From Octopus vulgaris (lineage: Eukaryota), in NCBI GenBank assembly GCA_951406725.2, contig OX597832.1, forward strand, positions 39,184,001-39,248,000: DNA of 64,000 nucleotides, written 5' to 3'. Below are positions 3,661-62,149 of this stretch, piece by piece; within the stretch, counting starts at the first letter, position 1, and the number at the start of each line of letters is the position of its first letter. A program made the position numbers and the translations under genes. The notes under the pieces were generated by a model. The model did no database searches and was not told the origin of the DNA. It worked only from the letters and a program-made list of their open reading frames with translations.

Positions 3661-4640
3661 TCGTTCTTTTTGTGACCATCACTACCTCCATCTCCACGTC
3701 TGTTTCTGACAGACGTTGGCACATCTCTCACTGGCGTCAGCTAGTCTTGTCGAAGTATCGTATTCGTTTCACGAAAGACCGTAATTCTTTTCGCGTCGTT
3801 TTCGTGTGATTTCCACTGAAAAATCTGACGTCTAATGGAATTTTAATATTAAACCAGACAAATATTTTTCCAAATATTATATGACATTTTTGACAACTTC
3901 AGAAAAAAAATCGTTATATTTGGTGAAGATCTCTTCTCAACATTAAGTCCCTGCTGTATGTAACTAGCCGAAGTGTTTGCATAAATTTCCTCATATAACG
4001 CTTCACTTGACAATAAATTTAAAATGAGATCTCTTTTACTTTTCCTTTCCGTCTTTTAGTTCTACGTCTATTATTCTTCTTTTCGTTCAGTCGTGTTTTC
4101 TTTTCCTTTCTCTTCTCCAATTTTTTTTCCTCTTCCATTCTGTCTCTCCGCTGTTATAAATGCTATAAAACTGCTATAAAACAAATGAGATTCTCTCTTA
4201 AATCAAAGTAGAAACGGTTTCATATATTACTTCGCCGGCTGAGTTTATTCGGTAAACTAACTGGCTTATAGACTTGTGACGCGATCGTATTTTTGCAAGA
4301 CTTTACATCGGGTTTCAGGACAAGGCATTTAATTCTAACTGCCCCAAATCATCACAAAAGTGTTGTAAGAAAAGTTAGCATAGTTAAACTTGTGTCGTAA
4401 ATGTGTTCTTTACGCAACAGTAACACGAATTAAGTGTAACTCGTAAAACTGCTAATATGATCGTATTCAAATTTTCTCAATGTTTTCCAATCGCTGAGCG
4501 TTCATAATTTACTAAATAGCATTTCTCTGTGTTCTTTGACAAAATATTGTTTGCATTTTTTTCCTTCTGAAGCTTAGTTAACTAAAAAAAAACAATAGAA
4601 TGTTGCTATCCAATGTCTTTTCAGCTTTTAATTGTTCTGC

Positions 4641-13558: not shown

Positions 13559-13708
13559 AACACGCACACACATATATATATGCATATGTATGTATGCATC
13601 TATATATATATATATATATATACATATATATGTATATATGCACGTCTATGCATGTATGTATATATACACACATACATGCACACACATGTCTGTATGTACA
13701 TGTATATA

Positions 13709-35654: not shown

Positions 35655-35870
35655 CTAATGACTCAGAGTTTCAGCACAAGTTTTACACACTATCCGAGGG
35701 ACCCAGGGTTTGTCTTGATCTCCAAAGTTCATGCCAAAGTAACTAAGGTAAGCATTTTTCCCAAAATCTGTGATTTCGTTTCGCTGCCTAAGTAATGTGT
35801 AACATCCACAAATATAGCAGAGGACATCGTGCAGTTTTTTACATTTTCCTCTATCACAACTTGTCATATT
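35655..35870 (-). pseudogene. N-terminal zinc-finger fragment of a Chapaev3-like (CMC) DNA transposase
   Basis: CKKLHDVLCYICGCYTLLRQRNEITDFGKNAYLSYFGMNFGDQDKPWVPRIVCKTC matches the FCYICG...AYxxYFG...GDQDKxWxP...CxxC motif as I recall it. Truncated and flanked by SINEs. Confidence 0.7.
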
Positions 35871-46499: not shown

Positions 46500-46962
46500 G
46501 GGTGGGGAGTCCAAAAACGTAGCAAATGTTTTACCAAATGTGGACATGAGCAAAAAGTTCAGTTCTTGAATTTAGACTTGTAGCGGGGTCTAAAGAACTT
46601 TTCCAGATGAGCCATTTTTCCATATCGCAAAGACCACACTTTCCACTGCCATTGGCGTAAGGCTTACACTTTACCAGGATCTTCCAGTGAGTCATATAGC
46701 TGACACCTTTTTCCTTTAAGGACCATACATAAGTGGATAATTTGGTTGTTTTCCTTTTATCTCAGTGTCTCAAGCTTCAGGTGTGATTGTTGAACCTGGC
46801 TTTTAAATTTCCCTCTGCGAGAGCCACACATTTCTGTGGCGAAGCTATGTACTTAGTGGTTGTAGAGTCTACAGTGGCTTCATAATTGATGGCCTCGGTC
46901 ATACAAGCTCCATTTAGCGGGCACAAATTTTTAACTCTGCAGGAACTGCCGGCTTCATTTTG
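46500..46962 (-). pseudogene. Penelope-like element C-terminal GIY-YIG endonuclease remnant (Naiad-like)
   Basis: Hand translation: SSCRVKNLCPLNGACMTEAINYEATV...KCVALAEGNLKARFNNHT*SLRH*DKRKTTKLSTYVWSLKEKGVSYMTHWKILVKCKPYANGSGKCGLCDMEKWLI...LNSRTELF. This matches the CxC..CPLxGxC / VYxA / YIG / RxxNH / CxLCxxEK / LNxRxE pattern. Two stops and a frameshift; not in the ORF track. Confidence 0.85.
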
Positions 46963-59749: not shown

Positions 59750-60568
59750 GAATGGAGAGAAAATACTTGAAAAACGACGGAAGCTTAAGTGAATTAGAAT
59801 TCCAAGTCAAAATTAATGTTTTGGACATGAAATTTTATCCTCAGGGTAATTAGGAAATGGATTTCATTTGGCGACATGATTTTTGCGTCGTTTCTGTTTA
59901 ATTTCATAAACGCTTTATTTGTTTGCTTTTAATTATCTGGCCATTGCTTCAAGATAATAAAGTATTTAGGGAATAAATTATATACAGAAGATATTTTGAA
60001 TCATACCAAGGCTCGCATCTACTTGGAATCACGAATCAATTTGCATATGCAATACCATAAATTAAACAGGCATTTGCCGTTCAATCCCCAGGTCAACCAA
60101 CATTAACCATAATTTAATTTCAAAATGCAATATTGCAAAGTGAAATGCAAATATATATTACAACAGTCAGAGAAATGATGTGGAGAATTTGCTAGCAAGT
60201 AATATAGACAAAGGAATAAATTTTATATGGGGAAGAAGGAGAAACGTTTGACGTTTCGGACAGAACATTTCACCAGATTTAAAAGAAATTTCAACTGGTA
60301 ATGCCTGATAATATTTATAATATAATTTTTGTCTCCGATAATACGGTTTCCACCCGAAAGATTACACATTTTTTGAAACTTCTGGCATAAAATATATTTC
60401 ACTGTTTCAACTACAAATAAATTCCTTTAATAGAACACACGCACATAGGCATATTTTATTTTATATTTTATCTAGTTTCAGCTCACGAGCTGTGGCCATG
60501 CTGGGGCACCGCCATATATATATATATATATATATAATCAAAATTAACAACAAGGATATCCAGAGGTA

Positions 60569-60657
60569 ATGCAGTACGATCGTTTCATGCAACTCCATTT
60601 AATTGAACAATGCAATCGTTTCATCAATTTAAAATGCAGAGCAATCCTCAGCTGCAC
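60569..60657 (-). ncRNA. Type I hammerhead ribozyme fold with extended stem II
   Basis: Minus strand reads GTGCAG-CTGAGGA-[58 nt hairpin]-GAAAC-GATC-GTA-CTGCAT. Stem I is 6 bp, stem III has a palindromic GATC loop, and the GUA cut is predicted at 60575. Confidence 0.75.
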
Positions 60658-61167
60658 AAAGACATACAATTTAATTAAATTAAAACAGTTGGACACATTA
60701 CTATAATTATACCGAAAATCTCCAAGAAGTGAAGGAGATAGACAAAGAACATGCCTTCACGCCAGAATAGAAGCTTAAATGAAGGCAGAGGCTTTCATGG
60801 AAATATTCTATATATATGCACACACATACATACGCGCACACACATGTAAACACACACACACACACACACACACACATAATTAATGAGGACAAGTTACCAT
60901 TCCCAGATTAAGATTTTACGATTGAACAAATCTGAGATCAAATTAAACAGCATTGTGACAAAATACACATTTTGTGGCTGAGATGCTTCAGCAGAGTTTC
61001 AAAATTCGATTTATTCTGATAAATCCGTGGTACTACAGTAAGTATGTTCTAGTTGGACCACATATTACACAAGTTGTTTTAGCAAGGCTACAAAGCGAAG
61101 CCGTTCTCATATGACTACTACTGCTCGTATGTGCACGATTTCTGATTCCACACGTGCACAGGGAAGG

Positions 61168-61199
<32 letters not shown>

Positions 61200-61228
61200 C
61201 AAAAGAAAAACAGGATGCAAAGAATTTA

Positions 61229-61316
61229 GCGGTACATATGTTTCTGGCCTTTATTAGACAGTTTATATTAATGCATAATTGATGTAATATGTATGTCAAT
61301 AGACTTCATCAGCCAC
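61229..61316 (-). ncRNA. Type I hammerhead ribozyme fold, second divergent family, extended stem II
   Basis: Minus strand reads GTGG-CTGATGA-[61 nt imperfect hairpin AGTCTATTGACA...TGTCTAATAAAGGCC]-GAAAC-ATAT-GTA-CCGC; cut predicted at 61233. Confidence 0.7.
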
Positions 61317-61419
61317 GCACAATTACCACACCAAGGACATGTATTACATTATAATTTCGGGTAAAAGACGATTTTCGTTGGGGATGCAACGCTTTAATTT
61401 AATTAAATTGTATGTCTTT

Positions 61420-61508
61420 GTGCAGCTGAGGATTGCTCTGCATTTTAAATTGATGAAACGATTGCATTGTTCAATTAAATGAAGTTGCATGAAACGATCG
61501 TACAGCAT
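61420..61508 (+). ncRNA. Type I hammerhead ribozyme fold (mirror copy of 60569-60657)
   Basis: GTGCAG-CTGAGGA(61426-61432)-...-GAAAC(61491)-GATC-GTA-CAGCAT; one mismatch in stem I; cut predicted after 61502. Confidence 0.7.
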
Positions 61509-61536
61509 TACCTCTGGATATCCTTGTTGTTAATTT

Positions 61537-61574
<38 letters not shown>

Positions 61575-61876
61575 CATACATACACGCATACACACCCATA
61601 CATACATATATGCATACTTACATACATACATACATTCATACATAACCACACACGCTCTACGCTCAGCGAAAACAGTCTATTTCTCTTACTCATTTATCAC
61701 TTTCCCTTCCGTGCTGTTAAAGAGAAATTACTCGAAATGTATTTCCTCTGCTTATTTCTTTCATTATTTTAGCATCACTTTTTATTTATGCGCTTTTGTC
61801 TCACCACCTGTTTTTTTTTTTTCTTCTGTCTCTTCCTATATTATTTTCTGTTTCTTACCTCATAACATTATTCGTT

Positions 61877-62149
61877 TATTCTGTTGTGTCTGGGGAGAGT
61901 CATTTTCTTTTTGTGCCTTGTAATATAACACACGCATCGGTAAAATTTTTACTTTTTTCTTATTTTTATTCTCCTAAAATTTTCGTTGCCTCTTGCAAAC
62001 TTTCAAAAGTCAAGACTATTGAAAAGGTTGCAAGACGCAACGAAAATTTTAGGACAATAAAAATAAGAAATAAGTGGAAATTTTACCGGTGAGTGTGTTA
62101 CGTAATAAAGCACAAAAAGAAGATGACTCTCCCCAGACACAACAGAATA
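61877..62149. mobile_element. Foldback MITE-like palindrome (~135-bp imperfect arms, 2-nt loop, TA at both ends)
   Basis: TA|TTCTGTTGTGTCTGGGGAGAGTCAT ... ATGACTCTCCCCAGACACAACAGAA|TA; centre AGTC-AA-GACT at 62008-62017. Confidence 0.85.

Follow-up and report, generated by a model that had tools for sequence, protein, structure and literature searches.

The feature under study lies near one end of the window (the whole 64,000-nt stretch of Octopus vulgaris contig OX597832.1 that was analysed), where the end of a repeat that we call family A adjoins, head-to-head and with a clean junction of ~3 nt, the end of a second repeat, family B. A further family B end lies to the left, and the two B arms form an inverted repeat. 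The features of the site, in window coordinates, are as follows.

60537..60773, minus strand: family B end of the left arm, with its core at 60651; over 148 nt it shares 99% identity with the right arm
60882..61165, no strand: single-copy spacer that separates the left B arm from the end of family A (one match, itself)
61167..61194, no strand: (TA)n run that represents the target sequence, next to the 3' end of the element (most family A copies end in TA-rich runs or an optional tail)
61195..61389, minus strand: family A end, probably the 3' end (pseudo-LTR), truncated on its 5' side, of a Hydra-clade Penelope-like element (repeat matches, and a 3' UTR collinear up to a GIY-YIG endonuclease)
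61229..61232, minus strand: stem I 3' strand, CCGC
between 61233 and 61232, minus strand: predicted cut site of the family A copy
61233, minus strand: A17 of the family A motif
61233..61244, minus strand: G12-A13-A14, palindromic stem III ACATATGT and A17
61241-61234, minus strand: the palindrome ACATATGT
61245..61305, minus strand: 61-nt stem II, with A.A at 10.1-11.1, a 4-bp basal helix, an interrupted middle and a 6-bp apical hairpin
61306..61312, minus strand: catalytic box C3-A9, CTGATGA, position 7 being variable in family A
61313..61316, minus strand: stem I 5' strand, GTGG (GCGG in the family)
61393..61540, plus strand: right-arm family B, a 5'-truncated 3' end with a 58-nt stem II hammerhead, core at 61426 and A17 at 61502

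The original prediction was that 61195-61392 holds a hammerhead ribozyme that is a diverged sister of the one in the B arms and shares its long-armed architecture. The hammerhead motif is real, and the element that carries it ends at 61389 rather than 61392. On the minus strand of 61195-61392, GTGG (61316-61313) is followed by CTGATGA (61312-61306), the 61-nt insert (61305-61245), GAA, ACATATGT, A17 and CCGC; that is, the type I core elements CUGANGA, GAAA and UH are present in order, with position 7 free. Every part of the claimed architecture can be read there: the core, a stem II of 61 nt against 58 nt in family B, the palindromic stem III, the GUA triplet, the unpaired 10.1-11.1 position, 37-38 nt to the TA run and the shared terminus. 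The family B motif has its 58-nt insert, a CTGAGGA box and the palindrome ACGATCGT; both motifs share the GUA triplet, a TTTTGAT end and a distance of 37-38 nt from the (TA)n run, and 10.1-11.1 is unpaired in each (A.A in A, U.U in B). The stem I strands given for the two motifs (GTGG/CCGC and GTGCAG/CTGCAT) are present, with two qualifications. GTGG is a variant of the window copy, the family having GCGG, and CTGCAT occurs in the left-arm B copy only, the right-arm copy having CAGCAT, which breaks stem I.

No Rfam family matched the window at the gathering threshold, and no hammerhead family was among the 25 matches with E up to 10 in 60400-61700. A by-eye comparison with the published minimal descriptor for hammerheads of Penelope-like elements (PLEs) likewise placed the motif outside it, the insert being 61 nt long and six bases separating GAAA from UH. 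Among 30 family A and 30 family B copies chosen by likeness to the window, position 7 departs from the majority base in 14/30 and 8/30, respectively, and the other 11 core positions do so in 3/330 cells in each family. In the window copy of the A motif, stem I contains a wobble, the changes at 61303 and 61269 break helices, and the basal stem II is broken. By folding alone neither window motif did better than shuffles (z about -1.1), and the lowest-energy fold contained the hammerhead in a family-typical copy (L010) and not in the window copy. Judged by these changes and by the modelled folds, the window A copy is probably decayed and likely inactive.

The head-to-head contact of families A and B had been taken to form one TA-bounded block of 345 bp. 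A mobile or functional unit of this kind would account for the TA runs on both sides and for the clean junction, but B was found at 0/29 other A loci and A at 0/28 other B loci, 10 of 12 other head-to-head pairs joined ends of the same family, the two motifs lie on opposite strands and have unlike palindromes, and to either side of the junction the contigs of one DNA run pass into normal family sequence. (The junction is known from the assembly; no contig of one DNA run spanned it.) We regard such a unit as extremely improbable, and the contact as likely a chance or template-switch junction. No donor locus that would point to transduction was found for the spacer, which is single-copy. Note that two changes common to both B arms, at 61456-61459 and at the matching spot in the left arm, recreate the catalytic-box sequence found 35 nt downstream, which suggests either that a templated slip preceded the copying of the arms or that conversion took place between them. 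A 127-nt inverted repeat at 61877-62149 (89% complementary, with a 19-nt gap, and with similar sequence in locus L061) is probably a palindromic MITE-like repeat.

A repeat search of the 2.8-Gb genome (227 contigs) with family A gave 1,406 first-look candidates, with 46 matches among the 40 scored, and the same search with family B gave 2,147, of which 40 were scored; the best other copies of either family were 95% identical. Copies of both families are 5'-truncated, are often fused to an inverted copy of the same family, carry TA-rich runs at the end and often run on into a family-specific optional tail of roughly 75-120 nt. Because truncation, inverted joining, TA ends and a tail are among the hallmarks of Penelope-like elements listed in PMC8557442 and PMC11167929, we assign both families to this group. 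Upstream of the A end, a low-complexity 3' UTR of ~2.6 kb leads to a GIY-YIG endonuclease. At locus L136 the endonuclease, the UTR and an A-type motif lie in line, and L061 is collinear with this locus over a stretch of 2.1 kb (86%), as are L143, L138 and L153 in pieces. No intact ORF of family A was found, and the reverse transcriptase (RT) of family A itself was not recovered. Family B is represented by a broken RT, with a DKT motif, and an endonuclease between inverted B ends (locus L140). The A and B endonucleases are 47% identical; thus the two motifs come from related elements, which bears out the idea of a sister hammerhead of the same architecture.

The A endonuclease also led to a young sister, family C (72-74% identical), which has intact 836-aa ORFs and a motif with a 51-nt stem II. 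Its single ORF encodes the RT followed by the GIY-YIG endonuclease at the C terminus. The RT has RWA and DKT motifs (RWK and DKT in the Hydra description), and the endonucleases of the A lineage and of family C, read by eye, have a CxCx5C linker and CxxC and CxH around conserved E and N residues, with no CCHH. Because RWA, DKT, CxCx5C, CxxC, CxH and the missing CCHH agree with the description of the Hydra clade in PMC8557442, the parent proteins of families A, B and C fit this clade by their motifs. The Neptune clade was considered and set aside in favour of Hydra on account of the CxCx5C linker, the DKT motif and the missing CCHH. The published Hydra elements are described as generally under 3 kb in all (PMC8557442), a descriptive rather than diagnostic trait that does not hold here, where the 3' UTR alone, from stop codon to hammerhead, is about 2 kb in family C and 2.6 kb in family A. 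A Pfam scan of four element proteins returned no RT or endonuclease match. A protein homologue search gave 1,177 matches among 8,000 scored candidates; the 120 listed were 29-39% identical, with PF26215 on many of them and PF01541 on a few. A Hydra-type protein could be linked to some of the families only, namely A, B, C, that at L153 and 1/20 loci in one locus set.

Family C (loci L144-L148 and about 150 listed places) retains several ORFs, about 840 codons long, that are intact, its endonucleases are nearly identical, and by this measure it has probably been active recently. There were 18,587 first-look candidates, a number that suggests that Hydra-clade elements are very abundant in the Octopus genome. 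(The remnant of a further Hydra-type endonuclease, 33% identical to that of family C, lies on the minus strand at 46555-46956 of the window.)

In loci L001-L030, any second family A match at a locus was inverted and none was in tandem; at these loci family A thus shows none of the head-to-tail hammerhead units that define non-LTR retrozymes. We consider it probable that 61195-61389 is the 5'-truncated end of a (TA)n-inserted Hydra-type Penelope-like retroelement whose type I hammerhead motif has a 61-nt stem II, is likely to cleave as a dimer in intact elements and is likely to be inactive here. Rather than founding a ribozyme class of its own, as had been proposed, the motif is a length variant of the hammerhead already known from the pseudo-LTRs of such elements, a setting that the original prediction had not named.

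To count such motifs in the genome we used patterns that fix only the core and the outer stem III letters, with no pairing requirement, and compared each with a control (the reversed pattern in the case of 39-61 nt). Inserts of 8-38 nt gave 17,309 matches (1,542 in the control), inserts of 39-61 nt 35,782 (1,314), inserts of 62-90 nt 13,600 (1,174) and, with a narrower pattern, inserts of 91-120 nt 4,264 (338); the total for 39-120 nt is about 53,600 against about 2,800. After subtraction of the control there are about 50,800 long and about 15,800 short motifs, a ratio of about three to one that is valid for this stem III subtype only, since other stem III lengths fall outside the count. Among the first 30 matches with 39-61 nt inserts, stem I had at least 3 bp in 24/30 and at least 4 bp in 13/30 (5% in cross-paired controls), and the palindromic centre was fully Watson-Crick in 18 and in 28 with G-U allowed. 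The 91-120 nt set had a 3-bp stem I in only 9/30 and is thus richer in decayed or false matches. A descriptor that combines the palindrome with stem I gave, in 762 kb of loci (most of them picked by homology), 102 matches with a 6-nt inner palindrome and 0 in five shuffles, which is more than chance would give. Stem II inserts measure 51-66 nt in families A, B and C and reach about 110 nt in others.

Several other arrangements were seen alongside these. Families with 97-110 nt stem II and an AGCT palindrome (L257-L264, L319-L321 and L332-L333) often fold strongly (z down to -5.6) and have a stem I of only 2-3 bp; no parent ORF was found in the flanks examined. Locus L330 (C1:10835000-10840000) has four head-to-tail hammerheads, 593-594 bp apart, in which stem II is 70 nt long, stem I is a perfect helix of 6 bp and G10.1-C11.1 is paired, and resembles a retrozyme array with a long arm. 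Tandem arrays with a period of 545-560 bp (C1:33100416-33105375 and C1:25050050-25052891) contain hammerheads with a stem II of 25-26 nt and are likely non-LTR retrozymes; the corresponding pattern had 2,726 matches genome-wide (16 in the control), many of them in such arrays. At L023 and L058, a common dispersed repeat has compact minimal hammerheads, with 12 nt in stem II and 2 nt in the palindrome, which occur alongside the long forms. Outside the Octopus genome, the comparison extended to partial word matches in four organisms; a metagenome scan returned one locus of 1,659 bases, and a search of sequencing runs listed no RNA run as carrying the motif.

The differences between the A and B motifs had been offered as natural covariation support for a long stem II. 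In the positions that adjoin the core, four double-sided changes separate A from B: stem I and 10.2-11.2 have one each, and the stem III palindrome has two. The pair by itself is only suggestive, because a direct A-B alignment of stem II is unstable, falling out in two incompatible ways, and because the A clade (15 sequences) has 0 double-sided changes in 26 pairs; as evidence for stem II the pair does not suffice, and the support comes instead from many further families. In the B clade (13 sequences), 13/26 pairs change on both sides, a number as high as which was seen in 3/500 shuffles, the structure having been drawn from the same 13-sequence alignment on which it was scored. In its apical helix, 2/8 pairs change on both sides and 86.5% of cells are paired. 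A covariance model of these 13 sequences, close to the check that had been suggested, recovered the A motif (22.4 bits, E 0.02) and further families as well. Run over 94 loci, the B-clade model found A, C and other families among its 21 matches at E up to 0.01, and missed most of the longer families.

Two wider sets were judged by permutation and by controls with slid pairs. The first set, 208 unique matches drawn from the collected loci with no pairing filter and grouped into 76 clusters at 75% identity, paired above permutation at stem I.1-4, stem II.2-7 and both palindrome pairs; slid registers dropped pairing from 0.70 to 0.35-0.43, and the inner palindrome pair was paired in 35/45 clusters (18 expected). 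For the second set, 253 matches were reduced to 47 conservative clusters that share no significant 40-nt similarity, with one random copy taken from each. Here stem I.1-3 was paired in 36, 35 and 36 of 47 clusters (18-21 expected) and stem II.2-5 in 37, 38, 32 and 28 of 47 (18-20 expected), with pairing above chance to about II.8. In the palindrome, with fixed-letter sets dropped, the outer pair formed in 18/19 and the inner in 23/31 clusters (12.0 expected). Note that kinship among the clusters makes the shuffle p-values optimistic. Thus, in these alignments, covariation across many families (47-76 clusters) is seen in stem I, in the basal part of stem II and in the palindrome of stem III, and the covariation that had been predicted is found in these helices. 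It does not extend to 10.1-11.1, which was paired in 25/47 clusters of the second set (20 expected) and so is at chance. This position is A.A in family A, U.U in B and A.C in C, the canonical G10.1-C11.1 being absent. A missing 10.1-11.1 pair usually lowers hammerhead activity.

The palindrome data bear on whether the ribozyme works alone or in pairs. A monomer ribozyme would have a stem III of 2 bp closed by a tetraloop, its palindrome being incidental. Animal non-LTR retrozymes have just such a helix III; those of invertebrates cleave efficiently, and the axolotl HHR_Amex2, which has U.U at the base of helix II as in family B, reaches 22% cleavage as a monomer, according to PMC7229834. However, HHR_Amex2 cleaves more efficiently as a dimer (PMC7229834), and in the octopus motifs the central loop bases covary as Watson-Crick partners, which is of no use to a monomer. 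We consider a monomer unlikely. The two central loop bases covary although a single hairpin would not let them pair; the long-armed motifs therefore likely cleave as dimers, in line with the dimer model put forward for such ribozymes in PMC4209133 and PMC6765202. In such a dimer, a transcript running across two pseudo-LTRs of one family in partial tandem would let its two 8-nt palindromes pair into one long stem III, and each of the paired cores would then cut after GUH and so trim the element RNA. Closure of the first 4-7 pairs of stem II would be enough to join the two catalytic boxes, and the tip could then lengthen or shorten freely, with inserts ranging from about 12 nt to more than 100 nt as the outcome.

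This last step takes the distal arm to be a tolerated extension, as is probably the case given that family C lacks one strand of the apical hairpin of A and yet has intact ORFs, that the distal arm folds weakly (median z -0.69, against -1.83 for the whole arm) and that a stem I extension, which could make a loop contact, was not detected: stem I pairing stops after 3-4 bp, and no distal stem I helix stood above shuffles (p 0.12), although non-canonical contacts between stems I and II may exist. The tip is not wholly unconstrained, since the B-clade apical helix covaries and 13/47 distal parts fold at z below -1.64. A different reading is that the long stem II is a selected functional module, whether a binding site for the RT, a folding aid that replaces loop contacts or a control on the timing of cleavage. 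The apical covariation in the B clade, the above-chance pairing to about II.8 and the excess of long over short forms of this stem III type (about three to one) would agree with it, as would the Poseidon-clade hammerhead that needs its element's protein to cleave (PMC11167929). However, the arm varies from 39 to 120 nt with no common tip sequence apparent in the alignments, young family C has lost one apical-hairpin strand, and the Hydra elements published in PMC8557442 have inserts of 12-26 nt. Moreover, the family C lineage carries Asn-rich ORF insertions in addition to its roughly 2-kb low-complexity 3' UTR, which suggests a general expansion. On balance, we think a selected module doubtful. 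A bolder form of it, in which Hydra-clade elements have radiated into dozens of families with a selected stem II module of 40-110 nt and the 4-nt centre of the palindrome serves as a family barcode, such that only like pseudo-LTRs pair and cleave, strikes us as improbable. (We rejected the idea that stem II is coding sequence, as in the anole Poseidon element, since in family C the predicted cut precedes the start codon by 197 nt.)

For dimer cleavage and a tolerated arm, the preferred reading, traces of the cut itself were sought in RNA and in genomic copies. In three raw RNA runs of one organism, possibly of a different species (about 6% of each run, a weak test), RNA ends did not pile up at the predicted cut and B-like reads crossed it. 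Reads fell on the B part only (259, 285 and 153 per run, in both orientations), with none on the A part at 88% likeness. Among 28 family C loci examined, 0/12 copies reaching the ORF start began at the cut, likewise a weak test, and one of these 12, together with the reference copy, runs through it. It could be argued from these results that the motif is a non-catalytic relic, retained by the pseudo-LTR for its role as a structural signal; A.A or U.U at 10.1-11.1 would fit this idea, and Poseidon inserts in vitro without need for hammerhead cleavage (PMC11167929). Against a relic stand the confinement of polymorphism to the free position 7 within families A and B and the covariation of the three helices that surround the core. 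(By its design, the pattern admits A, C or T at position 17 in the clusters.) The anole Poseidon study likewise saw no read ends at its cut, even though the ribozyme there cleaved with protein (PMC11167929). We hold a relic to be quite unlikely.

The closest relatives of these motifs are the hammerheads of Hydra-clade PLEs (Craig et al. 2021, PMC8557442, File S2, which includes Hydra-1_Obim). In these, as here, a type I core with a short stem I and a self-complementary stem III lies near the 3' end of a (TA)n-targeting element, and 14 of the 26 rows of File S2 have U.U at the base of stem II, as in family B. They differ in the inserts, which are 12-26 nt in those 26 rows and 51-66 nt in families A, B and C. 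Three stem III strings from the Octopus motifs had 0 occurrences in the PMC8557442 supplement. The minimal PLE hammerheads of Cervera and de la Pena (2014, PMC4209133) similarly occur in pseudo-LTRs, mostly as single truncated copies, with opposite-strand pairs 100-700 bp apart, palindromic helix III, proposed dimers and many families per genome. The Octopus motifs exceed the stem II (3-7 bp plus a loop of 3-10 nt) and stem III (GAAANNUH) lengths of the descriptor given there, and families A and B are without the G10.1-C11.1 pair of its consensus. A natural U.U exception to that pair is described in PMC3088659. Long stems II, of about 54 and 48 nt, are present in the hammerheads of PLE-X1 from spike moss (PMC8557442, File S2), where they are marked as deviating from the canonical form; unlike the motifs here, these belong to two plant families of endonuclease-less elements that target 28S, and no covariation analysis was found for them in the text consulted. 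Retrozymes (PMC7229834) form tandem arrays and make loop 1-loop 2 contacts, whereas family A has single or inverted ends linked to an RT gene; an origin of animal non-LTR retrozymes from PLEs is argued in 10.64898/2026.07.22.740005. The "long helix II" of PMC13725137 is 6 bp, and the main text of an octopus repeat annotation (PMC13282606) does not mention ribozymes or hammerheads. Hammerheads with a 40-110 nt stem II in animal Penelope-like elements were not described in the literature consulted; Lunse et al. 2017, Repbase or Dfam entries, or supplements may hold such variants.

The copy in the window adds little when taken alone. As far as sequence comparison can tell, what it represents is a large, covariation-supported length variant of a known retroelement ribozyme. 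PLE hammerheads were already known, and those published for the Hydra clade are compact; in this 2.8-Gb animal genome most motifs of the stem III type in question are long-armed. Because long arms are in the majority and Rfam is silent at the locus, ribozyme counts, and statements that certain elements have no hammerhead, may depend on the limits of the descriptor used. If the barcode reading were true, about 50,000 ribozyme motifs per genome would have been missed by Rfam and by the published descriptor. Arms that range naturally in length from about 12 nt to more than 100 nt, a variety of palindromes and the young family C with its intact ORFs would make it possible to test whether these ribozymes need a partner or a protein, and what role cleavage has in retrotransposition.
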